Positions 9,124 through 56,957 of a stretch of DNA of 64,000 nt are shown here, piece by piece. Under the pieces are notes generated by a model. It ran no database searches. It worked only from the letters and a program-made list of their open reading frames with translations, and was not told the origin of the DNA. The position numbers and the translations under genes are program-made. The first letter of the stretch is position 1, and the number at the start of each line of letters is the position of its first letter. Origin of the DNA: a virus; IMG/VR virus record IMGVR_UViG_3300045988_131014, positions 1 to 64,000 of that record. One strand, 5' to 3'.

Positions 9124-9161
9124 TTCTTTCTTGATTTATTTCCTACAAAGTATGATAGTAG

Positions 9162-10142: not shown

Positions 10143-10679
10143 TTAAAAGAATAATCGGCAACCATACTACAAGAATTGTAGCACAGTCACCGACACATAT
10201 AAGAAGAGGAGTACAATATGAATATGTACCAATCTTAGAAATGATTTTTAGAATTGTTCTGTTTGAAAACGCCTTCGAATCGTTCCCCATAGGTTTGATT
10301 CCTATATATCTTCCACAGAAATGCATGGTACAGTCTCGCTTGATGTACTTAACTGGTTTTATCACACATGCACAAGTTTTTCATATGGCATCACATCAAC
10401 TAACTTATAGCCATATGTTAGACGAACTTTATACTATTATATTCTCTGTTTTATCAGCCAAGAAAAGCTGATTTCATTCTAAATCTGCAATGCCACTCGA
10501 AAGAGTAGCAGAGCAGACATACAAAGATTGTCGGTTTGTTTCTTCCATGACAATCGTTTTTGTATCATATTTTTGTAAATATTTCACTATATCTACATTT
10601 AAGAAAAACGAATTTTTTTTAAAAATGTGCAAAAAAGCCTTATAAATCAATGGTTTTAGCGAATGAGTTTTTCGAACAT

Positions 10680-11456
10680 TTATGCGTTTCTCAAGGTTTT
10701 CATACGTTCTTTTGCCTTATTTTTATCTATTTCCTTTGCACATTTTTCACAATATAACTTTGGTCTTCCAGTCTTTGTTATTCTTATTTTTCTTCCACAA
10801 CCAGAATTTGCACACTGCTTATAACCTTTTTTAAAATTCCCTATGTACTGATTACCAATATTCTCAAATTGAGTTACCTTATAAGCAATATCATCATCAG
10901 TGTCTCCTAAATCTATTTTGATATTAAGATTATTCACCTTTTTCCCAAAATGAATATAACCATTACTATATAACTCATGCAATAATTCATTCTTTTTATC
11001 AGATGAGAGAGTAACATTGGCAAGTTTAAATACTTCTGAAAGACCTTTTGAGTCTTTTTTATTTATCCATCCTTCACTATTCATATATCTTGCAATAGCA
11101 AATAGTGTAAACATAAATTTCTTTTGGCGATCATTTGGAAGAGACTCCACGACTTTTAATTCTTTTTCATAGATAGGAACATACTCAAGTTCCCTAAAGA
11201 GATTTTTTGATTCTGAATCATATAAATCAGTACATGTCTTTTTGATTTTATTGGCATATCTATATTCCTGATATCCTTCAATATTGAATTCAAGCATCTT
11301 TGCTTTGACTGTATCAATTAGAATATTTGGATCTTTACCTCTATCAAAATAATACTTAGCAATCAATGTTATCAAATATCCATTCGATATATTGTCTGGT
11401 TTATTACCAGACACTAATATCTCTCTAATATATTCTTTTTCATTCAGTATATACAA
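10680..11456 (-). CDS. hypothetical protein with C-terminal zinc ribbon
   Basis: 258-aa ORF overlapping the 852-aa gene by 17 nt; C-terminal CANSGC..YCEKC. Confidence 0.65.
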   Translation of the reverse strand: MYILNEKEYIREILVSGNKPDNISNGYLITLIAKYYFDRGKDPNILIDTVKAKMLEFNIEGYQEYRYANKIKKTCTDLYDSESKNLFRELEYVPIYEKELKVVESLPNDRQKKFMFTLFAIARYMNSEGWINKKDSKGLSEVFKLANVTLSSDKKNELLHELYSNGYIHFGKKVNNLNIKIDLGDTDDDIAYKVTQFENIGNQYIGNFKKGYKQCANSGCGRKIRITKTGRPKLYCEKCAKEIDKNKAKERMKTLRNA

Positions 11457-13998
11457 CTTCTTCCTCCATTTCTTCTAAACGCTTAATAATTAGTTCTCCA
11501 ATACAATCCCAACAAAACTGCCTATTACCTTTATATCCATAAGTCATATCAAGAATGATATTCATACGTTCATCATCATTTGGACATATTTCTTCGGCTT
11601 TCTTCTTAAACATTTCAACCATACTTGCACGTTGATAATATTTGTCGAATTCGTCCTGCTTATCAAAGATATCAGTTCTATTTAACTGTATTCCTTTTTC
11701 TTTTACCTGTTTCTTTTTATATTCTTTAATACATTCACAATAATATTGTTCAAGTTCTCGCAGAGCTTGTCTGTGTTCTTCAGTACAACGTCTTTTTACT
11801 TTTAGTATATTATAATCAAATGAAGAGTCCTTATGTAGCTGAGACTTATATCCGTCTAACTGACTTTCAACATATTTGCAAATTTGGTTCATAGAACAAT
11901 TTCCTGTACCAACTGGCATTTTTCTTTCGTACCAAAATAGAAAATCTTCTTGTTCTTTTGTAAGACTATCTTTGTTATACAAATCCTTGATAGAACATTT
12001 GTAGATAGCATAGCACTTAGCATTACTTTCTTTGATATACTGTTTATATTGTCTTTTAGTCTCATCATAAACATAAATCATAAAGTATGGCTTTCTGTAT
12101 GCGCAAAGCGATTGCAAATATCTATTCTCTCCGCAAGCACCTAAATTGTACCAACTACTTTCCATTGGTTTTGCAATGATTCCCTTAATTTTGTCCAACT
12201 CATTTTGTTGATAGAGCTGACCACATTCTATTCTATATTCTAATTCTTTATATTCAGATGAATCTTTCTCAAAATGAGATTGAACTTCCATCATAGATGT
12301 GACATAATTAGTGATTGTTCCAACTTGATTTCCCATACCTGCTTTATTTGTTTTTTTAACAGCAGCTTCAGTAACAACAATTTTTTCTGCATTTCGCTGA
12401 ACACATTCGATAGCAGGTAAATATCTATAACGTCTTTTCATAACTGGATTATTAGTAGAAAAGTTCAGATCCGAGTCCCAATCTTCCCCATTCTCAGCCA
12501 TACAAAATGAATCCCAACCGTTTATAATCATGATAGTATTCATATATTGATACCAATACTGACATTCATCCGAATTATTGATATTACACATTCGAATATT
12601 ATTATGACTTGTCATTGGGCTTCTAAAGAGTACAATTTCATCTTCATTTTTATCAATCCAAAATTTTGAATAACATTCATTTGCTTTTAATAAACCTGTA
12701 ACTTCCAACCCACAAAGAGATTGCATAAGAGCAAATGGATCGCCACTTGCAATCTGATAGTTACCTTTTACAAATAATTTACCAATTTTCGCATCATTCA
12801 TTTTTTTCTTGATATATCTATGTACAGAGTCGATTATATATGGATCTCCCAACATATATTCGCTTGTATATAAAGCACGTTGCCATGAATTTACATCAGT
12901 ATTTTCGTTAATACCAAGAAATTTAATAGTAGAAGAGTAGTCACCACACATAGCATCTTTTAAATAGTTGATTGTTGGTGCGCACAATTCCTCAACATCT
13001 TCGTCTGTAAATTCATAAGACTGAAGATATTGGTAATTCAATTCTCTCTGTTCTTCAAGAACATGCGGTGAAATTTTTGTTACAGAAAATCCGTATCCAC
13101 ATTCCTTATATGCATTCACATATTGCTCAATATTATCATACGCTCCCCATAATTTAAGAGAAGACTCTGTGACAATCATTTCACATTGACGAATATCTTG
13201 CATGTTTCCCCAAATATCTTCAATCATATAATTACCATTATTGTATTTTTCAATAAATTCATAAATAGGGAACGGATAGAGCATTCCTTTGAGCCATGCG
13301 TTTCTCAAGCACACACCGCCAGGAATATAATCAAGACCTAAAGATTCAGCTACTCGCTGCATATATTGTATAGTACAAAGATTAAAACCGTCAGATACAT
13401 TGTTTTCAAGAGCTTTATCTTTAATAATTTCTCTTGTCGGTTCTTTTGAATCGCCACCATCATCAAGTGATATAACATCTGCAAAATATTGTGTAATACA
13501 ATCTTTTACAACCAAAATTCCATGTGGATCACAAATCGGTTGTGATGCAGAACATGTTAATGCTTTGTAAGCTTCGTATTTTGCAGGAACTAATTTAGTA
13601 TCTGGATTTCTCTTGCATTCACATAATTCATTTAATTTGTCAATGTACTGTGAATTGCAGAAGAGAAGAGTATTATTTTTTAATCCACCAGTAGTTCCGA
13701 CAAAGCGTTTATAATTAACACCATTTATGATAACACCTTTTTTACCAGTCGCTCTTGCAAAATCAGATTTTTTATCAACAACTACCTGCATAAATATCTT
13801 TGAAAAATCAATACTCCAAATAGGTTTTTCTAAAATCTTATTTGCCATTATGCGGAATTCTTGGGCTTCAAACAGTGATATGAGTTCCTGATATTTAAAA
13901 GCCTCTTCTTTGGTAATCTGTAAATCCCAATTAGAATACTTTAGTTTATTTGTTCCAATTTTAAAAATCTCATATTGAGGTACGCTAATACCAGCCAT
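11440..13998 (-). CDS. candidate single-subunit two-barrel RNA polymerase (YonO / RdRp-like)
   Basis: 852 aa. FRSPMTSH (residues 458-465) followed about 40 aa later by DWDSD (codons at 12469..12483). This mirrors beta-prime RAPTLH..NADFDGD and eukaryotic RdRp RNPCLHPGD..DLDGD. Confidence 0.55.
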   Translation of the reverse strand: MAGISVPQYEIFKIGTNKLKYSNWDLQITKEEAFKYQELISLFEAQEFRIMANKILEKPIWSIDFSKIFMQVVVDKKSDFARATGKKGVIINGVNYKRFVGTTGGLKNNTLLFCNSQYIDKLNELCECKRNPDTKLVPAKYEAYKALTCSASQPICDPHGILVVKDCITQYFADVISLDDGGDSKEPTREIIKDKALENNVSDGFNLCTIQYMQRVAESLGLDYIPGGVCLRNAWLKGMLYPFPIYEFIEKYNNGNYMIEDIWGNMQDIRQCEMIVTESSLKLWGAYDNIEQYVNAYKECGYGFSVTKISPHVLEEQRELNYQYLQSYEFTDEDVEELCAPTINYLKDAMCGDYSSTIKFLGINENTDVNSWQRALYTSEYMLGDPYIIDSVHRYIKKKMNDAKIGKLFVKGNYQIASGDPFALMQSLCGLEVTGLLKANECYSKFWIDKNEDEIVLFRSPMTSHNNIRMCNINNSDECQYWYQYMNTIMIINGWDSFCMAENGEDWDSDLNFSTNNPVMKRRYRYLPAIECVQRNAEKIVVTEAAVKKTNKAGMGNQVGTITNYVTSMMEVQSHFEKDSSEYKELEYRIECGQLYQQNELDKIKGIIAKPMESSWYNLGACGENRYLQSLCAYRKPYFMIYVYDETKRQYKQYIKESNAKCYAIYKCSIKDLYNKDSLTKEQEDFLFWYERKMPVGTGNCSMNQICKYVESQLDGYKSQLHKDSSFDYNILKVKRRCTEEHRQALRELEQYYCECIKEYKKKQVKEKGIQLNRTDIFDKQDEFDKYYQRASMVEMFKKKAEEICPNDDERMNIILDMTYGYKGNRQFCWDCIGELIIKRLEEMEEEVVYTE

Positions 13999-31469: not shown

Positions 31470-31739
31470 ATGGAAAGTTATAAAATTAGTTATAATGGTG
31501 ATACTCAAATTAAAAATATTCACCATATAGGTGTTGATTATAATGGAAATTATTATAGCGTGATTTTCGGAGAATATGTAAATGGAGGATTCTTTAGTAT
31601 TCCAAATTGGAATTGCGGTGGTGAGTTAGCTGGGTTTAGTGATGTGTTTTGGAATACAGAATCTATTCAGAAATCATTAAAAAGTAAAAGAGCAGCTAAA
31701 GCTATTGCAAAAGCGATATCAGATTATGTAAAGGAGTGA
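31470..31739 (+). CDS. hypothetical protein
   Basis: GGAAGGTGG SD upstream. Confidence 0.6.
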   Translation: MESYKISYNGDTQIKNIHHIGVDYNGNYYSVIFGEYVNGGFFSIPNWNCGGELAGFSDVFWNTESIQKSLKSKRAAKAIAKAISDYVKE

Positions 31740-31744
31740 TTGGT

Positions 31745-32725
31745 ATGTGTTATAAGATAGAAGTACAAAATAGAAACGCAGAGAAGCTTAATAGGAAGTT
31801 GGATGAGTTAAATCTTCCTATATATATGAGAAAATATTTCACTGTTAGAATAGAGAGTAAAGCAGGTGCGTTGAATTATCTTGGAGTTATTGTAGATTTA
31901 CTCAATTGGTTTATTGAAGAAAAACTTATTGACAAAACAAATATTTCAGATATTAAGCCATCGGATTTTACCGATATTATGGCAGAGGATATTACATTAT
32001 ATTTGAAAACTAAAGAACAGAATGGTATGTCACCAACCACATTGGAAACTAGAAAGCATATGATAAGTAGCTTTTGGGATTATATGAGTAGAGTAATGGG
32101 AGCTGAAATTAAAGATAAATTCTTCAAAGATGTAACATATAAAGGAATTCCATCTGGAAACAATTTAACTAAAAAACTTCCAACAGAAAAACAGCTTAAT
32201 GATATGGAAGAGAAAATAATGTGGAAAAAGGATATTCCAGTAAGAAATAGAAATATTGCTATCTTTCGTGTATTAAGAGGAACTGGAATAAGAGAATCTG
32301 AACTTGCTGGTTTAGATTTATCTGATTTACATTTGGACGAAGAAATGCCATATATTACTATTCTTGGTAAAGGTGTGTACCGAGAAATGCAAAATAGAGC
32401 AGTATATCTTAGCGGATCTGCTCTGAAAGCATTAAGAGAATGGTTAGAATACAGAAGCACCTTAGATAATATTGTAGATACGGAAGCTGTGTTTGTAAAT
32501 AAAAATGGCACACGTACAACGGAAAGAAATATCAAACAGATATTTGAGAATTATGGAAATGGTATTACTCCACATATGATGCGACATTATTATGCTAGTA
32601 TAATGAACAGAAATGGAAATCTTGCATTTGTTCAGCAGCAGTTGGGGCATAGTAGTGTAAATACAACAGTTAATAATTATGCAAACGGAGCTGTTGGTAT
32701 GAGAGAAAAATTAATGGAGATGTGA
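31745..32725 (+). CDS. tyrosine recombinase (XerC/XerD-like integrase)
   Basis: RGTGIRESEL (Arg I), HMMRHYYAS (HxxR), LGHSSVNTTVNNY (His..Tyr). Confidence 0.85.
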   Translation: MCYKIEVQNRNAEKLNRKLDELNLPIYMRKYFTVRIESKAGALNYLGVIVDLLNWFIEEKLIDKTNISDIKPSDFTDIMAEDITLYLKTKEQNGMSPTTLETRKHMISSFWDYMSRVMGAEIKDKFFKDVTYKGIPSGNNLTKKLPTEKQLNDMEEKIMWKKDIPVRNRNIAIFRVLRGTGIRESELAGLDLSDLHLDEEMPYITILGKGVYREMQNRAVYLSGSALKALREWLEYRSTLDNIVDTEAVFVNKNGTRTTERNIKQIFENYGNGITPHMMRHYYASIMNRNGNLAFVQQQLGHSSVNTTVNNYANGAVGMREKLMEM

Positions 32726-34265: not shown

Positions 34266-34338
34266 AGGGCATTCGCCAAGCGGTAAGGCACAGGAATTTG
34301 ATTCCTGCATTACATCAGTTCGAATCTGATATGCCCTG
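34266..34338 (+). tRNA. tRNA-Gln (anticodon TTG), no encoded CCA
   Basis: AGGGCAT/ATGCCCT acceptor, D arm GCCAAGCGGTAAGGC, anticodon stem CAGGA/TCCTG with loop ATTTGAT, T arm ATCAG-TTCGAAT-CTGAT. Confidence 0.9.
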
Positions 34339-34494
34339 CTTTGTGACATTCCACCCGGTATGTTACAGAACGCAAGTGATTTCCTTGTAAGAGCAAAATG
34401 TGTAGTTGCTATAGTTCTACCATAGTCTAATCCACTAACGGATTACAAGCTGATACTATACTTCCTGATAAACTTGCGATAGTGTCAGCGACTT
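34339..34494 (+). ncRNA. 156-nt structured spacer between tRNA-Gln and tRNA-Met (tRNA-like or small RNA, unassigned)
   Basis: Stems TAATCC-actaac-GGATTA and GATACTAT..ATAGTGTC, plus terminal pairing GTTGCT../..AGCGAC. Confidence 0.3.
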
Positions 34495-34568
34495 GGATCA
34501 TTAGCACAATTGGTTAGTGCATTCGGCTCATAACCGAAAGGCTCAGAGTTCAAGTCTCTGATGATCCA
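34495..34568 (+). tRNA. tRNA-Met family (anticodon CAT), no encoded CCA
   Basis: GGATCAT/ATGATCC acceptor, D stem GCAC/GTGC, anticodon stem TTCGG/CCGAA with loop CTCATAA, T arm CAGAG-TTCAAGT-CTCTG. Confidence 0.9.
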
Positions 34569-34593
34569 TTGCTAAATCAAACAAAGAGAGGAG

Positions 34594-35993: not shown

Positions 35994-37430
35994 ATGGCAA
36001 ACAAAGTAAGAGAAGAAAATATCCCATTAATTAACTATACCAATGAGGTAAAAGATGAAGATGTTAGTGATAATCAGGACGTACAGAGATATTTCTGTAG
36101 TGACAAGCCATTTGTTAATGGAATTGGCGTTACGATTTTAACTGGTGACTATCTTCCACCTTTAATTTTAGCTGAAGTTCCATTAAATGAAGATATCGTA
36201 CAGAAATATATTGTGGATGGTCTTCAGAGAACAACCGCATTAATGCAGATTAGATACGGAAATCATAAATTTACTGGTGCTATTGAAGATAGTGAAATTG
36301 AGTACCAAGAAAAACAGGTAGATGAAAATGGAAAATTCTTAAAAGATGATGACGGGAATTTTGTATGGGAAAAGAAAACATTTGATATTAAAAATAAAAC
36401 ATATGATGATTTTCCAAAAGAACTGAAGAAGCGTTTTGACAATTATCAGCTCAGAATTGCCACATATCAAAATTGTGATATGAAAAAGGTAAGCAAATTG
36501 GTAAGAAAGCTGAATGTACAAAGAGGAATGAATACAAGTCAGAGAGCATTGACTTGGATTCCTACATATGCAAGAAAAATTAAAAATATTGCTGATGAAG
36601 GATTTTTTAAAAATAGTATTGAGTATTCTGACACTGCCAGAAAAAATGGAGAATATATGCAGAGCGTATGCCGATCTGTTATGAATGTTTTTCATTTTGA
36701 TGACTACAAACGTGGTGCAAAAGAAATATGTGATTATCTCGAAGATAATAGTAACATTGAAGAATTCAATACAGTCCATGAATATTTTCAAAGAATCGAA
36801 GCAGCTTGTAAAGATACTTGTAAAGATATTCTTGTCAAAAAAGATATTCCTGTATGGCTGACAGTATTCAGTAGATTTGTAAAATGTGGTTTAGAAGATA
36901 GCAAGTTTGCAGATTTTATTCATGAGTTATCAGGAAAATTACATAGTATTGATGTTAATGGTGTCAGTTACGATTCGTTAAATAAAGAGTCTGGTACTAC
37001 AGACAAAAAACTTGTAGTTGCTAAAATTAATACATATACAGCTTTGATGAACGATTTTTTACATTTTGATATAACAGAAACAAGTAGCACAGAAGTAGAG
37101 AATAACAATACAGAAGAAAATGCTGAAGATAATACGGAAGAAAGTGTTCTTTCCTTTGTTCAAGAAAATGCAAATCCAAATGTGACAGACGAAGATATAA
37201 ACCTTTACACAGACATGGTAGAAGATTGTGTTAAGATTGACGATCCAGTTTATAAAGAGTGTGGAATGGCATTAGTAGCACTCATGGCATATGCTTGTCA
37301 AAATGATAAGGATCAGGATTTTGAAAAATGGATTGAGAATTACAGAAATAAATCTGATTTTAGTTCATCACAGAAAGTTAATTATACATATATGAAACGC
37401 AGCTTTGATAATTTTATAGCAAATGCGTAA
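35994..37430 (+). CDS. DUF262 (ParB-like / GmrSD N-terminal) domain protein
   Basis: Hallmark DGLQRTTAL motif in the N-terminal third. SD AAGGAGGAAAT upstream. No obvious HNH/DUF1524 motif in the C-terminal half. Confidence 0.65.
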   Translation: MANKVREENIPLINYTNEVKDEDVSDNQDVQRYFCSDKPFVNGIGVTILTGDYLPPLILAEVPLNEDIVQKYIVDGLQRTTALMQIRYGNHKFTGAIEDSEIEYQEKQVDENGKFLKDDDGNFVWEKKTFDIKNKTYDDFPKELKKRFDNYQLRIATYQNCDMKKVSKLVRKLNVQRGMNTSQRALTWIPTYARKIKNIADEGFFKNSIEYSDTARKNGEYMQSVCRSVMNVFHFDDYKRGAKEICDYLEDNSNIEEFNTVHEYFQRIEAACKDTCKDILVKKDIPVWLTVFSRFVKCGLEDSKFADFIHELSGKLHSIDVNGVSYDSLNKESGTTDKKLVVAKINTYTALMNDFLHFDITETSSTEVENNNTEENAEDNTEESVLSFVQENANPNVTDEDINLYTDMVEDCVKIDDPVYKECGMALVALMAYACQNDKDQDFEKWIENYRNKSDFSSSQKVNYTYMKRSFDNFIANA

Positions 37431-37799: not shown

Positions 37800-38084
37800 A
37801 TGCATTTGATTCGTCTGTATATGATGTGTTTGGATATTCTTGAAAAAGAGAGAATAATCACGTATAGAGAAGACGAACATGATTTACTTATGGATATTCG
37901 TAATGGTAAGTATTTGGATAGCAACGATCAGCCAATCCCAGAATTCTTTGAAATGGTAAATGATTATGAAAAGAGATTGGATTATGCGAAGAAGAACACA
38001 AATCTTCCTGATAATCCTAATTATAAGGCTATCAATGAATTTGTTGCTAGTGTAAATGAAAGGGTGGTAAAAGGTGAAATCTAA
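37800..38084 (+). pseudogene. C-terminal fragment of an RlaP-like (RNA-repair-associated) nucleotidyltransferase family protein
   Basis: KHSMHLIRLYMMCLDILEKERIITYRE resembles the family's C-terminal helix. The N-terminal catalytic half is absent. The SD-preceded ATG at 37703 is in another frame and stops at TGA 37760. Confidence 0.4.
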
Positions 38085-39426
38085 TCTAAAAATTGAAATT
38101 CCATATGGTGCAAATGAAATTATTCATACCTTACAGAATAATGGATATGAAGCTTTCTTAGTTGGAGGGTGCGTAAGAGACAGTATCCTTGGAAGACCAA
38201 TTCACGATTATGACATTACAACTTCTGCCACACCAGATGAAATGATGGAAGTATTCAAGGACAAGAGAATTATTGAAACTGGTTTGCAACATGGAACTAT
38301 TACCATTGTAATTGACGGTGATGGATATGAATGTACCACTTACAGAATTGACGGTAATTACTCAGATAGTCGTAGACCTGATAGTGTAACATTTACACGA
38401 AATCTTAAAGAAGATTTAAAGCGTAGAGATTTTACAATCAATGCAATGGCATATAATGATGAAGTTGGTCTTGTAGATCCGTTTAATGGTATGGAAGATA
38501 TTAAATACCACAAGATTAGATGTGTTGGTAGAGCAGAAGACAGATTTTCAGAAGATGCATTAAGAATTTTACGTGCTATTCGGTTTGCATCACAGTTGGG
38601 ATTTGTCCTTGAACCTGATACAGATTGGAATATCTCTAAAATGTATAAGAATTTGGAGAATATATCTATTGAAAGGATCAATAGTGAGTTCTGTAAAATT
38701 GCTGCATCGAGTGATTTCTGTGTACAAATGGTCTTATATCACGAAGTATTCTCATTGTTCATTCCTGAAATTAAAGACATGTTTGGCTTTCAACAGAATA
38801 ATCCATATCATATTTATGATGTATGGAATCATACAGTACATGCAATAGAATATTGTGAATCTGATGATTTAGTAACAAGATTAGCTGTGTTCTTTCATGA
38901 CATAGGAAAGCCACGTTGTTATCAAGATAGCGAGGATGGTATTAGACATTTCAAAGGTCATGGAAGAGTCAGTGCTGATATGACTGATAAAATAATGAAG
39001 CGATTAAGATTTGACAATGATACAAGAGAAAAGGTCGTTGAATTAGTCTATTATCATGATGCTACTTTTGAGGTGGGAAAGAAATATATCAAGAGATGGC
39101 TTAATAAAATTGGGGAAGAACAGTTCAGAAGGTTATTAAATGTTCGTAGAGCTGATATTAAAGCACAAGCAGACATTAATCAGGGAACAAGGTTACAGAA
39201 GATTGATAACATCGGATATATTTTAGAAGAAGTCTTACAGGATGATGAATGTTTTTCTCTAAAGGATTTAGCAGTTAATGGAAAGGATTTAATTACTATT
39301 GGATATAAGCCAGGAAAAGAAATTGGTGAGGTATTAAATAATCTGTTGGATTCAGTCATTAGTGGAGAATATATAAATGAGAAAGAAAAACTATTAGAAA
39401 TAGCAGAGAGAAGATTACATGGTTAA
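38074..39426 (+). CDS. cca: CCA-adding tRNA nucleotidyltransferase with HD domain
   Basis: GGCVRDSILGRPIHDYDITT, RRDFTINAMA, LRAIRFASQLGF, and HD motif FFHDIGKP. Confidence 0.9.
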   Translation: MKSNLKIEIPYGANEIIHTLQNNGYEAFLVGGCVRDSILGRPIHDYDITTSATPDEMMEVFKDKRIIETGLQHGTITIVIDGDGYECTTYRIDGNYSDSRRPDSVTFTRNLKEDLKRRDFTINAMAYNDEVGLVDPFNGMEDIKYHKIRCVGRAEDRFSEDALRILRAIRFASQLGFVLEPDTDWNISKMYKNLENISIERINSEFCKIAASSDFCVQMVLYHEVFSLFIPEIKDMFGFQQNNPYHIYDVWNHTVHAIEYCESDDLVTRLAVFFHDIGKPRCYQDSEDGIRHFKGHGRVSADMTDKIMKRLRFDNDTREKVVELVYYHDATFEVGKKYIKRWLNKIGEEQFRRLLNVRRADIKAQADINQGTRLQKIDNIGYILEEVLQDDECFSLKDLAVNGKDLITIGYKPGKEIGEVLNNLLDSVISGEYINEKEKLLEIAERRLHG

Positions 39427-41496: not shown

Positions 41497-41583
41497 CATA
41501 ATATGAAGTTCGCAGTAAAGCGGAATTTCTTCTGAGTTTTCAGAGAATAAATACATATAAAAATAAAGAAAAGAGGTAGCAAA

Positions 41584-42108
41584 ATGAGAGAAACATTAAT
41601 TGTTGTAGATATGCAGAATGATTTTATTGATGGAACACTTGGTACAAAGGAAGCACAGGCAATTGTATCAAATGTAGCAAAGAAAATTAAGGAGTATAAG
41701 GATGCTGGTAAGCAGGTAATTTTTACAAGAGATACACATTCTGAGAATTACTTAGAAACATACGAGGGTAAGCACCTTCCTGTTGCTCACTGTGTAAAGA
41801 ATACTATTGGTTGGCAGATTTCCGATAAGTTAGATTTTGATATTGAGAACGATATTCTGATTGATAAGCCTACATTTGGTTGTTTAAACTGGAAGGATTT
41901 TGGATTTGAAAGCGTTGAGATTTGCGGATTATGCACCGATATCTGTGTGGTTTCAAATGCACTTATTATCAGAGCAAATTATCCTGAGATTGATATTACA
42001 ATAGATGCAAGTTGCTGTGCAGGTGTCACACCTGATACTCACAAGGCTGCATTAGCAACTATGAAGATGTGTCAGATCGAAGTGATTGGAGAGAATAATG
42101 AAGTGTAA
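41584..42108 (+). CDS. pncA: nicotinamidase (isochorismatase/cysteine-hydrolase family)
   Basis: VVDMQNDF (Asp), DTH..LPVAHCV..T.GWQI (metal site / PncA-type), IDKPTFG (Lys), ICGLCTDICV (Cys). Confidence 0.8.
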   Translation: MRETLIVVDMQNDFIDGTLGTKEAQAIVSNVAKKIKEYKDAGKQVIFTRDTHSENYLETYEGKHLPVAHCVKNTIGWQISDKLDFDIENDILIDKPTFGCLNWKDFGFESVEICGLCTDICVVSNALIIRANYPEIDITIDASCCAGVTPDTHKAALATMKMCQIEVIGENNEV

Positions 42109-42652
42109 GAATTATATCATTAATACTTTCAGACATTTTAAGAAAGTCTGTACTCATAAACGTTGGGTATTCTACTATTGCTGTAAAGTGGGAATTCCAT
42201 TTCAAGGGTTAGTACATGATTTATCTAAATTTTCTCCAACGGAATTTTGGGAGAGTGTTAAGTATTATCAAGGTACTTCAAGTCCAATAGATGCTTGCAA
42301 GAAAGAGAATGGTTGGTCAGTAGCTTGGATGCACCATAAAGGAAGAAACAAGCACCATTACGAATATTGGCAGGACAATTTTGATAATGGTGGAAATCCT
42401 ATTGAAATGCCAATGAAGTATAAAAAAGAAATGCTTTGTGATTATCTTGGAGCAGGTAGAGCATATCATGGTAAATCATTTAATTTTGAGAAGGAATTAA
42501 AATGGTGGGAATCTAAGAAAAGTAAACCAATTGCAATGCATCCAAATGACATGGCTTTTATTGATAAGTACATTAATCTGTTTTATGAGTACGAAAACAG
42601 AGAATATGATATTAGAACAATATTTAATCAAATCAAGAAAGAAGGAAAATAA
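42098..42652 (+). CDS. His/Trp-rich protein of unknown function inside the NAD operon (DUF5662-like by recollection)
   Basis: GGAG 7 nt upstream. LVHDLSKFSP..WMHHKGRNKHHYEYWQD. Overlaps pncA and abuts pncB. Confidence 0.6.
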   Translation: MKCKNYIINTFRHFKKVCTHKRWVFYYCCKVGIPFQGLVHDLSKFSPTEFWESVKYYQGTSSPIDACKKENGWSVAWMHHKGRNKHHYEYWQDNFDNGGNPIEMPMKYKKEMLCDYLGAGRAYHGKSFNFEKELKWWESKKSKPIAMHPNDMAFIDKYINLFYEYENREYDIRTIFNQIKKEGK

Positions 42653-42653
42653 T

Positions 42654-43862
42654 ATGGAGCAGATTATTACAAGTTTGTTGGAGACAGATGCCTACAAATT
42701 GTCAATGGGACAGGCTATTTATCATCAGTTTAGCGATTATAAAACCACTTGGAGTTTTAAATGTCGTAATAAGGATGTTCATTTTACACCAGAAATGGTA
42801 GAAGAGATCCGTAGACAGATTAAATTATATTGTGGTTTGAGATTCACAGAAGATGAACTTACTTATATTGATAATATCAAATGGATGAAAGGTTCATATG
42901 TTGATTTTCTGAGATTGTGGCAGCCAAGATATGAGGATTTTGAGATTACAACAGATTCAGATTGTGGTCTTTCTATCGAAACATTTGGTACATGGCTTAA
43001 TACATCTATGTATGAGATTCCTACACTTGCGATTGTAAACGAAGTATATTTCAGAATGGCATATAACTATGAGGAATTGCTTAATAGTTTCAAAAAGAGA
43101 TTAGATGAAAAGTACGAAAATCTCAGAAGCGGTCATTGGTACGCTGGTACATTTTCTGAATTTGGTCTTAGAAGAAGACTTTCTGCTGAAGCACAGGAGT
43201 TAGCTGTTGAGAAGTTTTCACATTTGAATGATACATTACACAGTCCATCTAAGTTTGTTGGTACATCTAATGTATATCTCGCAAAGAAATACAATCTCAC
43301 GCCTGTTGGAACTATGGCTCATGAATGGATTATGTGTTCTGGTCAGGGCAATCACAAGCACAATCCAGCATATTCAAACTGGTATGCCATAGACGCATGG
43401 GTTAGAGAGTATGGTGTGTTAAATGGTATTGCGCTCACAGACACAATTACAACTGATTGTTTCTTGAAAGATTTTCAGTTGACATATGCAACATTATTCA
43501 GTGGTGTAAGACATGATAGTGGCGATCCGATTGAATGGGGTGAAAAGATGATTAATCATTATGAGTCACTTGGTATCAATCCTAAGACAAAGACACTTCT
43601 GTTTAGTGACAGTCTTGATTTTGAAAGAGCTGATAAGTTATTCAGACACTTCCATGATAGAGTAAACGTTGCATTTGGAATTGGTACTTATTTGAGTAAT
43701 GACACAGATGTTCCCGCTTTAAATATTGTAATGAAAACCACTAAATGTAATGGCATGGATGTTGCAAAAGTGTCTGATGTAGAAGGTAAAGGTATGTGTA
43801 AAAACCCTGATTATGTTGATTATTTAAAGAGATGTATTAATTGGAGAATGAATCATGAATAA
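42654..43862 (+). CDS. pncB: nicotinate phosphoribosyltransferase
   Basis: Collinear with E. coli PncB: LLETDAYKLSMGQA, FGLRRRLS, FVGTSNVYLAKKY.LTPVGTMAHEW, GIALTDT, GVRHDSGDPIEWGEK, FGIGT, NIVMK..KCNG..VAK.SD. Confidence 0.9.
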   Translation: MEQIITSLLETDAYKLSMGQAIYHQFSDYKTTWSFKCRNKDVHFTPEMVEEIRRQIKLYCGLRFTEDELTYIDNIKWMKGSYVDFLRLWQPRYEDFEITTDSDCGLSIETFGTWLNTSMYEIPTLAIVNEVYFRMAYNYEELLNSFKKRLDEKYENLRSGHWYAGTFSEFGLRRRLSAEAQELAVEKFSHLNDTLHSPSKFVGTSNVYLAKKYNLTPVGTMAHEWIMCSGQGNHKHNPAYSNWYAIDAWVREYGVLNGIALTDTITTDCFLKDFQLTYATLFSGVRHDSGDPIEWGEKMINHYESLGINPKTKTLLFSDSLDFERADKLFRHFHDRVNVAFGIGTYLSNDTDVPALNIVMKTTKCNGMDVAKVSDVEGKGMCKNPDYVDYLKRCINWRMNHE

Positions 43863-44481
43863 AATTTTACTTATACCAGGAAGTTTTAATCCAATTACTA
43901 ACGCCCATGTTGATATGGCATTGACTGCTAAAAAAGCGGTTAATGCCGATGCTATATTGTTTATTCCTGCACATGATACATATGTTGCGAAGAAAAAGAT
44001 TTTGATACCTGGATATTGTCGAGTATCGCTGATTAATTCAATGCCAAATTGTGAGGAAAATAATATGTGCGCATCCGAAGTTGAAACAACCAGCTTCTTT
44101 CCACAGAGGACATACAATACTATTACTCAGATAAGAGATATGAATGAAAAAGATTATATTTTCAACGAATACTATATTTGTTTAGGAATGGATAATATTG
44201 AAACACTTACAACTTGGTATAATTGGAAACCGTTTGTTGAGGAATATAATTTTGTAGCATGTGTGAGGGAAGGTCAGAATCTTGAGACTGCTTTAAGAGA
44301 AGCAAATCTTATGGAATATAAAGATCACTTCACAGAAATTCAGATACCAGAAAATCACACTTCTTCAAGTTTGGTTAGAGATTTATGTGAAAAGGGTGAA
44401 TTTGAAAAAGTAAAAGAATTAGTTCCTAGAAATGTATATGAGTATTTAATTCGGTTCTATGATGTGATGAATCGAATGTAG
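43855..44481 (+). CDS. nadD: nicotinate-nucleotide (NaMN/NMN) adenylyltransferase
   Basis: PGSFNPITNAH (HxGH-type motif) and C-terminal TSSSLVRD (ISSTxxR-type motif); 8-nt overlap with pncB. Confidence 0.8.
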   Translation: MNKILLIPGSFNPITNAHVDMALTAKKAVNADAILFIPAHDTYVAKKKILIPGYCRVSLINSMPNCEENNMCASEVETTSFFPQRTYNTITQIRDMNEKDYIFNEYYICLGMDNIETLTTWYNWKPFVEEYNFVACVREGQNLETALREANLMEYKDHFTEIQIPENHTSSSLVRDLCEKGEFEKVKELVPRNVYEYLIRFYDVMNRM

Positions 44482-44497
44482 GAAGGAGAATATATAA

Positions 44498-45262
44498 ATG
44501 TTTGATGCTAAGAAAGTAAAGAATGAGATCGTAGAGTGGATTAGAGATTGGTTTGAACAGAATGGTAAAGATTGTATGGCAGTAGTTGGAATTTCTGGCG
44601 GTAAAGATTCAAGTGTTGTAGCTGCATTATGTGTAGAAGCTCTTGGAAAAAATAGAGTAATTGGAGTCCTTATGCCAAATGGACATCAATCAGATATTAT
44701 GGATGCATATAAATTATGCAAATTACTGAATATTAAAAGTATTGAGGTTAATATAAAAGAAACTGTAGATAGTGTGTACGATGCTATTCGTTATGGTGTT
44801 TATGATGATACACGACAAGGTTTTGACGAATTAAACATATCTGTACAGTCCAGAATTAATTTACCACCAAGAATTAGAATGGCTACATTATATGCTATTT
44901 CTCAGTCAGTAAATGGTCGTGTTGCTAATACATGTAATCTTTCTGAGGATTGGGTAGGTTATGCTACAAAATATGGCGATGCCGCTGGTGATTTCAGTCC
45001 ATTATCTCAGCTTACAGTAACAGAGGTTAAGGCTCTTGGTCGTGAGTTAGGACTTACATCTGAATTAATTGACAAGACACCTACCGATGGTCTTTGTGGA
45101 AAGACAGATGAAGATAATCTTGGATTTACATATGCAGAATTAGACGCATATATCAGAGATGGAATCGAGCCAAATGAGGAAGTAAAAGCTAAGATTGATT
45201 CAATGCATGAGAAAAATCTGTTTAAATTACAGCCAATGCCAAGTTTTGTGTATCAAGCGTAA
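44498..45262 (+). CDS. nadE: NH3-dependent NAD+ synthetase
   Basis: PP-loop VVGISGGKDSSVVAAL; NadE-like DWVGYATKYGDAAGDFSPL and TPTDGL. Confidence 0.9.
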   Translation: MFDAKKVKNEIVEWIRDWFEQNGKDCMAVVGISGGKDSSVVAALCVEALGKNRVIGVLMPNGHQSDIMDAYKLCKLLNIKSIEVNIKETVDSVYDAIRYGVYDDTRQGFDELNISVQSRINLPPRIRMATLYAISQSVNGRVANTCNLSEDWVGYATKYGDAAGDFSPLSQLTVTEVKALGRELGLTSELIDKTPTDGLCGKTDEDNLGFTYAELDAYIRDGIEPNEEVKAKIDSMHEKNLFKLQPMPSFVYQA

Positions 45263-45269
45263 ATGAGAT

Positions 45270-45322
45270 ACTATATATAGTGTTTGTGGAAGATATAGGC
45301 ACTATATATAGTAATATTTTTA
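45270..45322 (+). terminator. terminator closing the NAD operon
   Basis: Two copies of the self-complementary ACTATATATAGT form a 12-bp stem, followed by AATATTTTT. Confidence 0.6.
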
Positions 45323-45364
45323 CCAAGAAACATAGATTTCCTTGGGTTAGAAAAGAGGTAAAAA

Positions 45365-49009: not shown

Positions 49010-50329
49010 ATGTATTGTGCTTATATCACAACATTAAAAGGATTAAGAAAACATAGTAACGCTGATAGATTACAGTGTGTAGAAGTATTTGGACAGAATG
49101 TAATTGTAGATTTGAGTTATCATGAAGGGCAGAAAGTGGTCTTCTTCCCATCTGACGGTCAGTTATCACTTGAGTATGCAACAGATAACAACCTTGTAAG
49201 GAAGAAAGACGAAAGCGGAAACAACATTGGTGGTTATATGGATGCTGAGAAGAGAAATGTAACCGCTATTAGACTTAGAGGTGAGAAGTCAGAAGGACTT
49301 GTATTACCTGTTGAGACGCTTTCTAAGTATACAGATATTTCAAAATTAAAAGATGGCGATCAGATTACAGTTCTTGGTGGTCATGAGATTTGTCAGAAAT
49401 ATATTCCTAGTGGAAAGAATCGTTCAAGAAGTGATGGAAATAGTTCAAATAAGAAGAACAAGTTTCAGAAAGAAACAGTATCATATCCATTTTTTGAGGA
49501 GCATAAAGATACTGCACAGCTTGCATATAATATGTCAGCATTTAAGCCAGGAGATACAATTTATATTACTCGTAAGCTCCATGGAACATCAGCTCGTACT
49601 ATGAAGACTGTTAAGGTTACAAAGAAGAATAGTAAACTGAGAAAGTTCTTACATATGCAGCCAAAGGTTACAAGAGAAGTTTCTGTTGTATCTGGTAGCA
49701 GAAGAGTTGTATTAAAGGATATGACAAAGAATGATGGATATTATTCTGATAATGGATTTAGAAAGAAGTACCACGATTTATTAAAAGACAAGCTTCCTGA
49801 GGGTGCTGAGATTTTCTATGAAATTGTAGGATATGTAAATGAAACAACACCAATTATGGGTTCAGTATCTAATAAAGGAGTTAAGGAAAAAGAATTTACA
49901 AAGAAATTTGGTGACATCACAACATTCTCATATGGTTGTGAGCCAGGCGAAAATGAGATGTATGTATATCGAATGACAATGACAACAGCAGACGGAACAG
50001 TTGTTGAAGTGCCTTGGGAGATTGTAGAGGTATGGTGTGACAAGTTGGGTGTTAAGCATGTACCTGATTTAGAGAAGTTTATTTTTACTACACCAGAAGA
50101 TTTGAAAGAAAGAGTAAATAAATATCTTGATGGTATGCCAGCAGATGAAATCGGTAAGACACATGTTGCCGAAGGTGTAGTTGTTCGTATTGATAACAGA
50201 GCAACATTCACGGCTTATAAGGATAAGGTGTTTGAATTTAAGGTAATTGAGGGGATCGCCAAAGATACATCTGATGTACCTGATATGGAAGAAGCTGAAG
50301 AATTATTTGAGGAGACTTTAAATGAATAA
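49010..50329 (+). CDS. ATP-dependent RNA ligase (Rnl2/DRB0094-like)
   Basis: N-terminal NADRLQCVEVFGQNVIV module, motif I RKLHGTS, motif IV AEGVVVRI, motif V YKDKVFEFK. Confidence 0.75.
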   Translation: MYCAYITTLKGLRKHSNADRLQCVEVFGQNVIVDLSYHEGQKVVFFPSDGQLSLEYATDNNLVRKKDESGNNIGGYMDAEKRNVTAIRLRGEKSEGLVLPVETLSKYTDISKLKDGDQITVLGGHEICQKYIPSGKNRSRSDGNSSNKKNKFQKETVSYPFFEEHKDTAQLAYNMSAFKPGDTIYITRKLHGTSARTMKTVKVTKKNSKLRKFLHMQPKVTREVSVVSGSRRVVLKDMTKNDGYYSDNGFRKKYHDLLKDKLPEGAEIFYEIVGYVNETTPIMGSVSNKGVKEKEFTKKFGDITTFSYGCEPGENEMYVYRMTMTTADGTVVEVPWEIVEVWCDKLGVKHVPDLEKFIFTTPEDLKERVNKYLDGMPADEIGKTHVAEGVVVRIDNRATFTAYKDKVFEFKVIEGIAKDTSDVPDMEEAEELFEETLNE

Positions 50330-51212
50330 ACCTACAATGTGGGTACTCGTTTGACTGAGTGGTAGTGGCAAGTCAACCATTGCTACTCAGATTGCCAATG
50401 AGAATCCAAATACAGTAATCGTATCATCAGACGCAATTCGTGAAGAATTAACAGGTAATTACGAAGATCAAGAACATAACGAAGAAGTGTTTAAGATTTT
50501 TCACGATAGAATCCGCAAGAATTTGGAGAATAAAAAGAATGTAATTGCAGATGCAACTAATCTAACTATGAAATCTCGTAGAGCAATTATGATGAAAGTA
50601 AATGGTTTAAATGTCAGAAAAGTATGTGTAATTATTCCAAAGCCATTTAAACAGTGCAAAAAAGATAATCTACATAGAGAACATCCTGTACCTGATTTTG
50701 TGTTGGATAAGCAGATTAGAAAATATCAGATTCCGTTCTACGAGGAAGGATTCGATGAGATTATTATTCATAAATTTCATAATGCTAATGCAATGACCAC
50801 AGGTGGATTGATTGCTAAAATGAAAGATTTTGACCAGAAGAATCCTCATCATACTATGACTTTAGAAAATCATTGCTTTAATACATATGATTTATTTACA
50901 GAAAAAGGACATAAAGCTGAATACAATATTGGAGCAGTTCTTCATGATTATGGCAAACTATACTGCCAGACAATTGATGAAAATGGTATAGCTCATTATT
51001 ATGACCACCCATCTGTCGGATGCTATTTGGTTTTAGAGAGTTTAATGGAAGAGTTTAATAAGGTTGTATTAGATATATGTTTCCTCATCAATTACCATAT
51101 GATGCCTTTTAGTTGGGATACTGATAAAGCAAAGCAGCGTTGGAAAGAAAGATTTGGAGAATATAAATATAAGATGCTTTTAGATTTCAATGAATGTGAT
51201 AAAGCGAGGTAA
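50322..51212 (+). CDS. polynucleotide kinase (P-loop) fused to HD phosphohydrolase, with in-frame TGA at 50352..50354
   Basis: MNKPTMWVLV*LSGSGKST: the TGA sits at the first Gly position of Walker A. Downstream are SSDAIREEL, DATNL and the HD motifs HHTMTLENH..LHDYGK. The ATG overlaps the ligase stop. Confidence 0.7.
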
Positions 51213-51397: not shown

Positions 51398-51871
51398 ATG
51401 AGGATAGAATTAATTAGATTAAAATTTAACGACACTCATTCGTACAAGTATAAGCCATTTAAGTATTGTTGTGATGAAATTCAGAATAATGAGTGCATAG
51501 AATTTACAAACGAAAATTTAACAAATTTTAATGTTGATTATGATAAAGAATATGGTTTTATTCCTCAGCTCTGTACTTCACATACAGAAGTTATTACATC
51601 GTATGAAGATGAATGGGAACAGACAGACAATTATCCAATCCAGTTTTGTCCTCATTGTGGCAAAAAGATTGAGATTTCAGTCGTAGAAGAGATTAATGTA
51701 TCTGATAAGTACAATGAATTATCTAAGCAGCGTAATGAATTATGGAAGAAGTGTCAGAGAACAGATAGTAAGAAGAAAGAATCTGAATTAAGAGAGCAAG
51801 TTAGAAAGCTTGATAAACAGATTGATAGTTTCTATTGGTTAGATGAGTGGAAAGAGGACGTATATGTATAA
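51398..51871 (+). CDS. hypothetical zinc-ribbon protein
   Basis: 157-aa ORF; CPHCGK. Confidence 0.6.
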   Translation: MRIELIRLKFNDTHSYKYKPFKYCCDEIQNNECIEFTNENLTNFNVDYDKEYGFIPQLCTSHTEVITSYEDEWEQTDNYPIQFCPHCGKKIEISVVEEINVSDKYNELSKQRNELWKKCQRTDSKKKESELREQVRKLDKQIDSFYWLDEWKEDVYV

Positions 51872-52277
51872 ACAAATTATTATTGCTAGAAAAGATTTGA
51901 ATATGAGTTCTGGGAAGCTCGCAGCTCAAGTCAGCTACGGCTCTATGGCATTTCTTAGTTGGTTTATTAGAAATAATGCCGATTTAGATGGTCATGTCGA
52001 TGGCTATATTGACGAAGATATTCTTCACAATTGGATTGAGGGTGAATTTACAAAATGTGTTCTTCAAGCCAAGAATAAGAATCAGTTGCTAAAAGCTAAG
52101 ACTATGGCAGAAGAATTAGGAATGGTTGAAGGCAAAGATTTCTGGCTCATAAAGGATAACTATCACACTGAATTAGAACCAGAAGAAGATGGTAGAACAC
52201 TTACTGTAATTGGTTTTAGACCAATGGACAGTGAACTTATTGATCAGATTGGAAGAAAATATCATTTATATATGTAG
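51864..52277 (+). CDS. peptidyl-tRNA hydrolase, PTH2 (archaeal/eukaryotic type)
   Basis: KQIIIARKDLNMSSGKLAAQVSYGSMAF matches the PTH2 N-terminal signature; size is about 137 aa. Confidence 0.75.
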   Translation: MYKQIIIARKDLNMSSGKLAAQVSYGSMAFLSWFIRNNADLDGHVDGYIDEDILHNWIEGEFTKCVLQAKNKNQLLKAKTMAEELGMVEGKDFWLIKDNYHTELEPEEDGRTLTVIGFRPMDSELIDQIGRKYHLYM

Positions 52278-55099: not shown

Positions 55100-56284
55100 A
55101 TGGCATTTGCAACTACCATTTATGTTGTTATTTATCCAAAATTTTTCAATGAAAGATTGGATTGTACCAAATTGAAATCCTATGACAATATATCAGATGT
55201 AGATTTAGCAAGTTGGCAAGATTTAATCAAATTACAGAAAGAACATCTAACGCAGCTTGAAGCTGATTCATTAGAACTAATCAAAGAAAAGACAGAGAAA
55301 TTTAATACATATACTTCGATAATTCCTGTCTCTATGGGTAAGGATTCAATGCTTACCTGTCATCTAGTCAGAAAATTATATCCAGAAACAAAAGCAATAT
55401 TCAATAATACATCACTTGATTGTGTTGACACATATAGAATGATTAAGACTTTCCCTAATTGTGAGATTATGAATCCTGAGAAGGGATTTTACCAATATAT
55501 TAAAGAACAAAATATTATATTTAATAGAATTTCTCGTGGTTGTTGTAGAATCTTCAAAGTAGGTGAAATGGTTAGGCGTTTAGACCATAACAAACCATAT
55601 TTAATGTGGATGGGTATGCGAAACGAAGAATCTAATACTAGAAGCGGATATCAGGATGAATGGGTAAACGAAGCTGAATGGGGAAATACATGTTGGCAGG
55701 GAATACTACCAATAAGAAAATGGGACGAAATAGATGTCTGGTTATATACAATATGGAAAAATATTGAAATAAATTCAAAGTATAAAAAGGGATATTCAAG
55801 GGTTGGCTGTGCCGTATCGTGCCCTTACTACACCAAATCAACGTGGATTCTTGATAAATATTGGTATCCAACAATGAGAAATCGTTGGGAGAATATTTTA
55901 AAAGAAGACTTTATAGGCAATTCAAAATGGTTAGTTATGAATTGCACAGTAGATGAATATATCAATCAAGCTTGGAATGGTGGCGTGTTTAGAGATGAAC
56001 CAACAAAAGAGGTTATTAAAGAATATGCTAAGTATAGCAATTTAGATGAGAAAGTTGCTGCACAGTATTTTAACAAATATTGTGACAATGGATGCAAGTC
56101 TCAATCTGGTAAGTTGAAGCGAATTAAGGCGAAGGATGTTATTGGTATGAACTTAAAATATCATGGAAGGAATATCAATAAGTTTTATTGTAAAAAGTGT
56201 CTCATGAAAATGTATAACATGGATGAAGAAAAATGGAACAAACAAGTAGAAAGATTTAAACAATCAGGATGTGATTTGTTTTAA
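55100..56284 (+). CDS. PAPS reductase / PP-loop ATP pyrophosphatase family protein with C-terminal Cys cluster
   Basis: PP-loop variant IIPVSMGKDSMLTCHLV; later CAVSCPYY and CKKC; no SD at the annotated start. Confidence 0.6.
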   Translation: MAFATTIYVVIYPKFFNERLDCTKLKSYDNISDVDLASWQDLIKLQKEHLTQLEADSLELIKEKTEKFNTYTSIIPVSMGKDSMLTCHLVRKLYPETKAIFNNTSLDCVDTYRMIKTFPNCEIMNPEKGFYQYIKEQNIIFNRISRGCCRIFKVGEMVRRLDHNKPYLMWMGMRNEESNTRSGYQDEWVNEAEWGNTCWQGILPIRKWDEIDVWLYTIWKNIEINSKYKKGYSRVGCAVSCPYYTKSTWILDKYWYPTMRNRWENILKEDFIGNSKWLVMNCTVDEYINQAWNGGVFRDEPTKEVIKEYAKYSNLDEKVAAQYFNKYCDNGCKSQSGKLKRIKAKDVIGMNLKYHGRNINKFYCKKCLMKMYNMDEEKWNKQVERFKQSGCDLF

Positions 56285-56405: not shown

Positions 56406-56957
56406 ATGAAGAACACAAATTGGAAAGTGCCAGTAATTATTGGCGTAGGAGTATTAGCAGTTATTTTGATGATTGTATTTGGTGTACAGAGTTCGCAGAA
56501 TAAAGCTATTGCACTTGAGGAGCAGGTAAATACAGCGTCATCAGATATTAAGGTACAGGAAAAACGAAGAGTTGACCTTGTATATAACCTTGCTGATTGT
56601 GTAAAACAGTATGACAAACATGAAGCTGATACATTGACAGCAGTTGCAGATGGTCGTGGATCAACAGGAGATATTGAGAATGTAACAACAGCTATCACAG
56701 CGGTTGCAGAAGCATATCCTGAGTTGAAGTCCAATGAGAACTATAAGACTCTTATGAATGAGTTATCTATGACAGAGAATATGATTGCAGAGTATCGCAG
56801 CAATTATAATAAACAGATTAAGGAATACAAGCGATATGTGAGAAAGTTCCCTACAAGACAGTTTCTTGGATTGCTTGGATATGAAGTACAGGAATATGAG
56901 TATCTGGATTACAATGCACCAGTTGATGCTCCACAGGATTTGTTTAAAGAGGATTAG
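56406..56957 (+). CDS. lemA: LemA-family membrane protein
   Basis: N-terminal TM, then QNKAIALEEQVNTASSDIKVQEKRRVDLVYNL..AYPELKSNENY..L..EL..TEN.I..R..YN..I..Y. Confidence 0.85.
   Translation: MKNTNWKVPVIIGVGVLAVILMIVFGVQSSQNKAIALEEQVNTASSDIKVQEKRRVDLVYNLADCVKQYDKHEADTLTAVADGRGSTGDIENVTTAITAVAEAYPELKSNENYKTLMNELSMTENMIAEYRSNYNKQIKEYKRYVRKFPTRQFLGLLGYEVQEYEYLDYNAPVDAPQDLFKED

Follow-up and report, generated by a model that had tools for sequence, protein, structure and literature searches.

A five-gene cluster for a predicted deamidating route from nicotinamide to NAD+ in a gut phage of the SPbeta/c-st type

Gene arrangement and predicted products

The first 64,000 nucleotides of the IMG/VR virus record IMGVR_UViG_3300045988_131014 (the whole stretch of DNA analysed here, called the window) contain a cluster of five genes that code for the enzyme families leading from nicotinamide to nicotinamide adenine dinucleotide (NAD+) and for one protein of the family DUF5662 (Table 1). 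The window is part of a genuine phage, large and of the SPbeta/c-st type, from the human gut and with a Lachnospiraceae host. The original prediction, made from the sequence alone, described five packed or overlapping forward genes, and the listing of open reading frames (ORFs) bears this out with five co-directional ORFs at 41584-45262 of the plus strand. The genes pncA and DUF5662 overlap by 11 nt and pncB and nadD by 8 nt, a gap of 1 nt separates DUF5662 from pncB, and the 16-nt gap between nadD and nadE holds the ribosome-binding site GGAAGGAG. The start of pncB was corrected to 42654, the upstream TTG not being used, and for the DUF5662 gene the ATG at 42098 is the most likely start. Such close or overlapping junctions speak for co-transcription of all five genes, in which case transcription would probably start at the CAGAGAATAA-type element in front of pncA and end at the hairpin at 45269.

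Both boundary elements described in the original prediction, a junction motif at 41541 and a strong terminator at 45270, correspond to real sequence features. The terminator-like hairpin, at 45269-45313 with a stem of 20 bp, folds at -23.1 kcal/mol, against -8.9 +/- 2.2 in shuffled sequences (z -6.5; 0 of 200 shuffles fold equally well), and is followed on its 3' side by AUAUUUUUA. The CAGAGAATAA-type motif, allowing up to one mismatch, was found 45 times in the window when 10.8 +/- 3.1 matches were expected, a count that was reached in 0 of 100 shuffles. Its form is [C/A/T]AGAGAATA[A/T], with examples at 2892, 6027, 26915, 33843, 40535, 41541, 56287, 61116 and 62931. The strand of the motif is always the local coding strand and most copies are intergenic, 20-45 nt 5' of start codons. 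The element is a candidate phage-specific promoter for the phage's own YonO-type RNA polymerase. Often, the motif is preceded by a run of A. The sigma-70 promoter consensus was not enriched in the window (41 found against 51 expected) and thereby gives no promoter position, and a search of Rfam at gathering thresholds returned only the 7 tRNAs, with no NAD+ riboswitch or other leader 5' of pncA.

Table 1 Position of the NAD+ cluster and of other features in the window
Feature	Position	Strand	Description
pncA-like gene, predicted nicotinamidase	41584..42108	+	174 aa, isochorismatase fold; PF00857
DUF5662 protein	42098..42652	+	184 aa; PF18907
pncB, predicted nicotinate phosphoribosyltransferase	42654..43862	+	402 aa; TIGR01514, NF003704
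nadD-like gene, predicted NaMN/NMN adenylyltransferase	43855..44481	+	208 aa; PF01467
nadE, predicted single-domain NH3-type NAD+ synthetase	44498..45262	+	254 aa; TIGR00552, PF02540
CAGAGAATAA junction motif	41541..41550	+	43 nt 5' of pncA start codon
Terminator-like hairpin and U-rich tail	45269..45323	+	closes the five-gene unit
YonO-type single-subunit RNA polymerase	11440-13998	-	852 aa
Tyrosine recombinase/integrase-like gene	3391-4437	-
Tyrosine recombinase/integrase-like gene	31736-32725	+
Ku-like DNA-end-binding gene	197-865	+
7 tRNAs	70-143, 1056-1128, 1978-2052, 9161-9236, 10069-10142, 34266-34339, 34494-34569
RNA-repair/translation ORFs	38074-39426, 49010-50329, 50487-51212, 51843-52277
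Weak GmrSD_N-like match	35994-37430		26 bits, below cutoff
PAPS-reductase-domain protein	55100-56284		394 aa
LemA-family protein	56406-56957
NaMN, nicotinate mononucleotide; NMN, nicotinamide mononucleotide.

The first gene product matches PF00857 (E 9.5e-30, Pfam) and has as its nearest solved relative the pyrazinamidase/nicotinamidase of P. horikoshii (1IM5, E 4e-16). The Asp/Lys/Cys triad and metal site originally described could be placed in this alignment, where D9/K95/C121 correspond to the catalytic triad and D50/H52/H69 to the Zn site. The protein stays under the NCBIfam equivalog cutoffs (NF008623, 36.3 bits against 174, N-terminus only), and its prediction as a nicotinamidase is based on these motifs and on the adjacency to pncB found in the hosts. 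PncB scores well above the cutoffs of TIGR01514 (402 bits, cutoff 269.55) and NF003704 (480.6 bits, cutoff 379). Its expected collinearity with a known PncB was found over the full length of P. aeruginosa PncB2 (1YIR, E 8e-96, residues 3-397), including the conserved GTMAHEW at 220-226, the phospho-His segment. The NadD-like protein matches PF01467 (E 1.4e-14) and, with 100.8 bits, lies slightly below the TIGR00482 cutoff of 112.45. It aligns end to end with NadD of B. anthracis (2QTR, residues 1-200), the predicted GSFNPITNAH (9-18) standing opposite GGTFDPPHYGH and SSSLVR (170-175) opposite SSSLLR, which places both nucleotidyltransferase motifs, (H/T)xxH and SxxxxR. The TNAH motif resembles that of eukaryotic NMNATs. 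The family is small: 88 close relatives were found, none of them on a contig longer than 275 kb. NadE reaches 184.9 bits with TIGR00552 (cutoff 63.65) and E 5e-54 with PF02540; it has the expected SGGKDS PP-loop at 33-38 and is a single domain, without the glutaminase domain.

The profile searches proposed with the original prediction thus gave matches for PF00857, PF01467 and PF02540, and TIGR01514 and NF003704 gave the family of pncB; the catalytic residues to which it pointed are present on alignment with solved enzymes. As judged from these comparisons, the presence of all four enzyme families of the deamidating nicotinamide-to-NAD+ route, with intact catalytic motifs, is confirmed. The enzymology of such families, from nicotinamide to nicotinate, nicotinate mononucleotide (NaMN), nicotinate adenine dinucleotide (NaAD) and NAD+, can be taken with high confidence from established family knowledge, and the proteins of the cluster would be expected to have the corresponding activities.

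The second ORF, originally described as an unknown His-rich gene, belongs to DUF5662 (PF18907, E 8e-33, Pfam), and many His are indeed among the positions invariant in 30 homologues (H13, H20, H40, D41, H79, H80, H86, H87, E89, D93, E111 and D115). This His/Asp set appears HD-like, a resemblance to the H...HD...H...D pattern that was judged by eye. The AlphaFold2 model is all-alpha with a mean predicted local distance difference test (pLDDT) of 92.3. Foldseek comparison of this model gave no significant match in the PDB (best HD-GYP 4r8z, E 0.57, template modelling score 0.31) or in BFVD, a PDB profile search gave only chance matches and the NCBIfam search with the protein none. A relaxed Pfam scan of 30 members recovered DUF5662 alone, with no HD match even at E <= 5, and we found no paper in the literature naming the family. 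The family is large (3,672 clusters at 50% identity), and in several divergent lineages its gene sits between pncA and pncB. One member (P0381) is a fusion of DUF5662 with a NadD-like protein, whose NadD-like half matches TIGR00482 (E 1.4e-10) over the full profile length and is no close relative of the window NadD. Other fusions, with 2-thiouracil desulfurase (twice), a HAD_SAK_2 RNA-repair domain, a nucleoside deoxyribosyltransferase-like domain and DMP19, were also seen (all fusions: P0381, P0407, P0431, P0385, P0432, P0414), some of which may be gene-calling fusions. DUF5662 is probably a metal-dependent nucleotide hydrolase that often partners an NAD module, and the evidence points no further.

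Conservation, divergent relatives and host origin

At least 167 viral contigs of IMG/VR have a close PncB, and the conservation counts refer to the best 80 of them, mostly of 90-196 kb with one of 216 kb. The order pncA-DUF5662-pncB-nadD-nadE is kept in about 70 of these 80 loci, and in about 57-61 of the 80 the DUF5662-pncB-nadD core is at least 95% identical at the nucleotide level. The flanks of the cluster are swapped, the upstream methyltransferase being common to 10 of the 80 loci and the downstream genes to 1-12. Within the cluster, pncA is mosaic among the relatives (52-98% protein identity) and so are the 5' two-thirds of nadE (57-97%). Within one phage clade the core is 95-100% identical, and pncA and 5' nadE are replaced by alleles of 52-78% identity (window 41584-42108 and 44498-45000, relatives L082-L161). 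Homing-endonuclease ORFs (GIY-YIG, HNH/AP2-like) are found between the cluster genes in some relatives. These patterns suggest that pncA and nadE have diversified by endonuclease-driven gene conversion or recombination. In some relatives (L098 and L085, 8814-9458 in both) a 214-aa ORF with CxxxCxxC (radical-SAM-like) lies between pncA and DUF5662, and its C-terminal tail ...IGENNEV is that of the window PncA.

The megablast comparison of the cluster against 50,697 GenBank phage records gave no match, and no cultured phage among them carries the cluster. With the PncB protein, tblastn matched 14 of these records. The 735-kb uncultured phage LR756501 has adjacent pncB and nadE. In the 117-kb gut phage MT835470, pncB-nadE stands beside a gene with only weak similarity to pncA (27% identity, E 6e-7). 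One record, CAKLQH020000008.1 (L175, 'Acinetobacter phage MD-2021a'), has its pncB among the housekeeping genes serB, dtd, psd and phoBR, in a region that looks bacterial.

Look-ups from the DUF5662 and NadD homologues revealed the same module in divergent phage-like lineages. All five genes are present in L164 (225 kb), with a NadR-like and PnuC gene pair 4 kb upstream (77-1898), in L182 (206 kb), with a PARG gene upstream and a SIR2 gene about 1.3 kb downstream of nadE (2339-3118 and 9605-10189), and in L186 and L188, in the second of which RtcB adjoins. L184 has a NadD of no more than 45% identity, and between its nadD and nadE stands a Lar restriction-alleviation gene (7648-7914). The 301-kb contig L162 has pncA-DUF5662-pncB and, further on, nadE. 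A different version, pncA-pncB-nadD-nadE-NUDIX without DUF5662, was found in L179-181, with the NUDIX gene directly after nadE (8385-8963 in L179).

In a search of 185,579 species-representative genomes, the cellular PncB proteins most similar to that of the phage came from Agathobacter and other Lachnospiraceae (77-85% identity, the best being 85% in Agathobacter). In these Lachnospiraceae loci pncA is directly upstream of pncB and nadE is often directly downstream (80 bacterial loci), with identities to the phage proteins of 35-55% for PncA and 47-57% for NadE. The chromosomal operons of Agathobacter, Butyrivibrio and Roseburia, with the same order of pncA, pncB and nadE, are the evident evolutionary source. 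DUF5662 was found in none of the 80 bacterial pncB loci and a nadD-like gene adjoins pncB in only 2 of them. In a neighbour-joining tree without bootstrap the PncB proteins of the phage five-gene clade form one group beside Agathobacter. Unlike the Lachnospiraceae operons, the phage copy has phage base composition and junction motifs. The phage pncB has a GC content of 0.35 and 0.28 at third codon positions (GC3), like its phage neighbours, against 0.42 and 0.445 in Agathobacter, and the two genes share 76% nucleotide identity. Both the phage-like GC3 and this nucleotide identity point to an old acquisition.

The segment is host-derived, yet neither a chimera nor recent cargo. A host-derived segment or an assembly chimera had been put forward as grounds for refuting the original prediction. 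The first of the two stood, given the 85% identity of PncB with Agathobacter, and the second fell with the recurrence of the cluster and its phage composition. The host origin is evolutionary only and thus no refutation of a function in the phage. A pncA-pncB(-nadE) core was captured from an Agathobacter-like host lineage and later adapted to the phage, and the phage-restricted nadD-like gene and DUF5662 joined this captured core as phage-side additions.

Known phage pathways and possible roles of the cluster

Phage pathways that rebuild NAD+ against NAD+-cleaving (NADase) defences have been described as NARP1 (Adps and Namat) and NARP2 (Nampt and Nmnat) (Osterman et al., 10.1101/2024.02.11.579819), and NARP3 (PnuC and NadR) has been shown experimentally to counter Sir2-HerA (PMC13464706). 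In addition, complete Preiss-Handler clusters (pncB-nadD-nadE, as in Kuafu_71) have been reported from jumbo phages of the gut, in a study that also names phage pncA and suggests such NAD+ synthesis as an answer to NAD+-depleting defence (PMC11662467, Microbiome 2024), and the same counter-defence idea was put forward for the NAD genes of Xanthomonas phage X1 (PMC13384950, 2026). The claim of the original prediction that this route was undescribed as an anti-defence module was therefore too strong. We found in the literature no experimental test of phage Preiss-Handler clusters against NADase defence.

The window cluster is like the jumbo phage clusters and phage X1 in having phage NAD genes with a proposed role against NAD+ depletion, and like the former in the clustering of pncB, nadD and nadE on a gut phage genome. 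It differs from the jumbo phage clusters in its carrier, an SPbeta/c-st-like phage whose relatives, given their sizes, are not clearly above 200 kb, in the inclusion of pncA, which makes nicotinamide the entry point, and in the conserved DUF5662 between pncA and pncB. With the megaphage copies its PncB shares no more than 34-38% identity. The novelty lies in the conservation of a five-gene form that includes DUF5662 and in its carrier, an abundant gut phage whose related contigs are mostly shorter than 200 kb.

With NARP2 the cluster shares a phage-encoded, operonic organization and the expected input and output (nicotinamide, phosphoribosyl pyrophosphate (PRPP) and ATP to NAD+). Nampt, like PncB, is a type II phosphoribosyltransferase, and the same nucleotidyltransferase fold is common to Nmnat and the NadD-like protein. 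The predicted window route differs in being deamidated, with two extra steps (PncA and NadE) and passage through NaMN and NaAD, and its phosphoribosyltransferase scores as a nicotinate phosphoribosyltransferase (TIGR01514) and not as Nampt. NARP1 and NARP3 are alike as phage NAD+ rebuilding pathways but use other substrates, ADP-ribose and nicotinamide riboside respectively, and no Adps, Namat, PnuC or NadR was detected with Pfam and NCBIfam in the cluster or in the window ORFs scanned. The NadR-like and PnuC pair of NARP3 does, however, stand near the same five-gene module in L164. NARP1 operons can be extended by an accessory phosphatase (10.64898/2026.01.28.702374), a precedent that makes such a role thinkable for DUF5662, although DUF5662 is neither a Macro-domain protein nor a member of a known phosphatase family. 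It would most likely act as an accessory metal-dependent nucleotide hydrolase tied to the adenylyltransferase step or to the handling of ADP-ribose side products.

To the infected Lachnospiraceae cell the operon would add a duplicate of the complete deamidating salvage pathway for nicotinamide, under the control of the phage. PncA would convert nicotinamide to nicotinate and NH3, PncB would join nicotinate and PRPP (with ATP) to give NaMN, the NadD-like enzyme would adenylate NaMN to NaAD, and the NH3-type NadE would amidate NaAD to NAD+. Nicotinamide freed by any cleavage of NAD+, including that by SIR2- or TIR-type NADase defences, would feed the rebuilding of NAD+, and the operon would act like NARP2 (nicotinamide in, NAD+ out) with enzymes of the Firmicute gene pool.

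The likeliest benefit, to which we give about an even chance, is that the operon maintains or restores the NAD+ pool of the infected cell, also when NADase defences attack it. This reading is favoured by the precedent of NARP1-3, by the persistence of the cluster in a fluid accessory region and by neighbours of counter-defence type, namely the NadR-like and PnuC genes (L164), NUDIX (L179-181), PARG (L182), Lar (L184) and the methyltransferases of the window. A counter-defence role is plausible, and nothing sets it apart from a general provisioning of NAD+. Several points weigh against this reading. The host already holds the same pathway, which fits an ordinary set of auxiliary metabolic genes. 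In bacteria pncA is usually paired with pncB, so that its presence is not specific to the products of NADases, and the removal of nicotinamide relieves the product inhibition of SIR2-type enzymes (as with sirtuins and Pnc1), which could harm the phage. The four-step route would cost more ATP than NARP1 or NARP2. The SIR2 gene beside the cluster in L182 points to consumption of NAD+ by the phage itself rather than to defence, DUF5662 is also found in phages without NAD genes, beside RNase H, Rnl1 and PNK or alone, and the NadD-like protein lies below the TIGR00482 equivalog cutoff and may prefer either NaMN or NMN.

A general auxiliary metabolic module, providing more NAD+ for the needs of the phage independently of host NADase defence, is a tenable but doubtful alternative that may coexist with the former. 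Such needs could come from phage sirtuins, ADP-ribosyltransferases or ligases, or from a large burst in a niacin-limited gut host. The genes are indeed a host-derived copy of a housekeeping salvage operon, nucleotide and cofactor genes are common in large phages, and phages with NAD pathways also encode many NAD+-consuming enzymes (PMC11662467). The SIR2 and PARG genes on either side of the L182 cluster fit here too, and so does established sirtuin/Pnc1 biochemistry, by which PncA would spare a phage sirtuin from inhibition by nicotinamide. On the other hand, no NAD+ consumer (sirtuin, ADP-ribosyltransferase, Tpt1, NAD-ligase, Macro, NUDIX) was found with Pfam and PHROGs in the roughly 50 window ORFs scanned, the window being 64 kb of a genome of roughly 150-190 kb. 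Furthermore, the neighbours are of counter-defence and not of metabolic type, a NARP3-like pair is near the five-gene module in L164, and the module would be compatible with NAD+ rebuilding against defence, with no mutual exclusion.

A stronger version of the NAD+ rebuilding reading would make the cluster a fourth phage reconstitution pathway ('NARP4'), deamidated and common in gut-Firmicute phages, with DUF5662 as an integral part and a new family of metal-dependent hydrolases. DUF5662 might then process ADP-ribose, or a product or signal derived from it, or might proofread adenylyl transfer, as has been proposed for the HD protein YqeK with NadD. We regard this version as rather unlikely, although it fits the recurrence of the pncA-DUF5662-pncB linkage across lineages in which NadD may be only 45% identical, the existence of a DUF5662-NadD-like fusion and the replacement of DUF5662 by a NUDIX gene in one lineage.

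The operon could also be lysogenic-conversion cargo of a temperate phage, adding niacin and nicotinamide salvage to the lysogen in the gut. The two tyrosine-recombinase genes of the window would agree with this, as would the established temperate or plasmid-prophage nature of its relatives SPbeta and c-st. This is improbable, however, since the best PncB match among the species-representative genomes is the 85% one, with no prophage copy seen, and the host already has pncA-pncB. Moreover, the operon is co-directional inside a long replication/repair block, behind a phage junction motif, unlike a free-standing moron that brings its own promoter. Finally, host DNA misassembled onto a phage contig, or non-functional passenger genes, would account for a PncB 85% identical to a bacterial chromosomal gene, but this artefact was rejected and has a negligible probability, as the same cluster with intact ORFs recurs across many samples (about 70 of the best 80 viral contigs), its GC and GC3 fit the phage neighbours and not Agathobacter, its pncB and the host gene share only 76% nucleotide identity, the catalytic motifs are intact and the core is strongly conserved.

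Phage setting and significance

The YonO-type polymerase of the window shares 49% identity with its counterparts in cultured Enterocloster phages, 35% with that of Clostridium phage c-st and about 26% with YonO of SPbeta; in some GenBank records this polymerase is labelled 'RNA-dependent RNA polymerase'. The window also encodes a DHH phosphoesterase and C5 and Dam-type DNA methyltransferases, and DNA methyltransferases flank the NAD operon. An RNA-repair/translation set is found around the operon, consisting of a CCA-adding enzyme, an RNA ligase, a PNK-like kinase, PTH2 and the 7 tRNAs. RNA-repair genes adjoin the NAD module elsewhere: L188 has RtcB, L164 has RlaP and PNK, and L182 has a tRNA nucleotidyltransferase. 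That the phage is a prophage of a sequenced species was considered and rejected, no near-identical copy having been found in the species-representative genomes.

Depletion of NAD+ is among the commonest means of bacteria against phages, and three phage routes for rebuilding it have been proven, none of them via nicotinate. Should the cluster protect phages against NADase systems, this would reveal that the classical four-step salvage route has been recruited as a counter-defence. This would be relevant to the abundant phages of human-gut Lachnospiraceae, in which anti-defence biology is almost unexplored, and would give DUF5662 its first functional context. If there is no rescue, the cluster would still be a clean case of a phage metabolic module that arose by capture and extension of a host operon and then became fixed.

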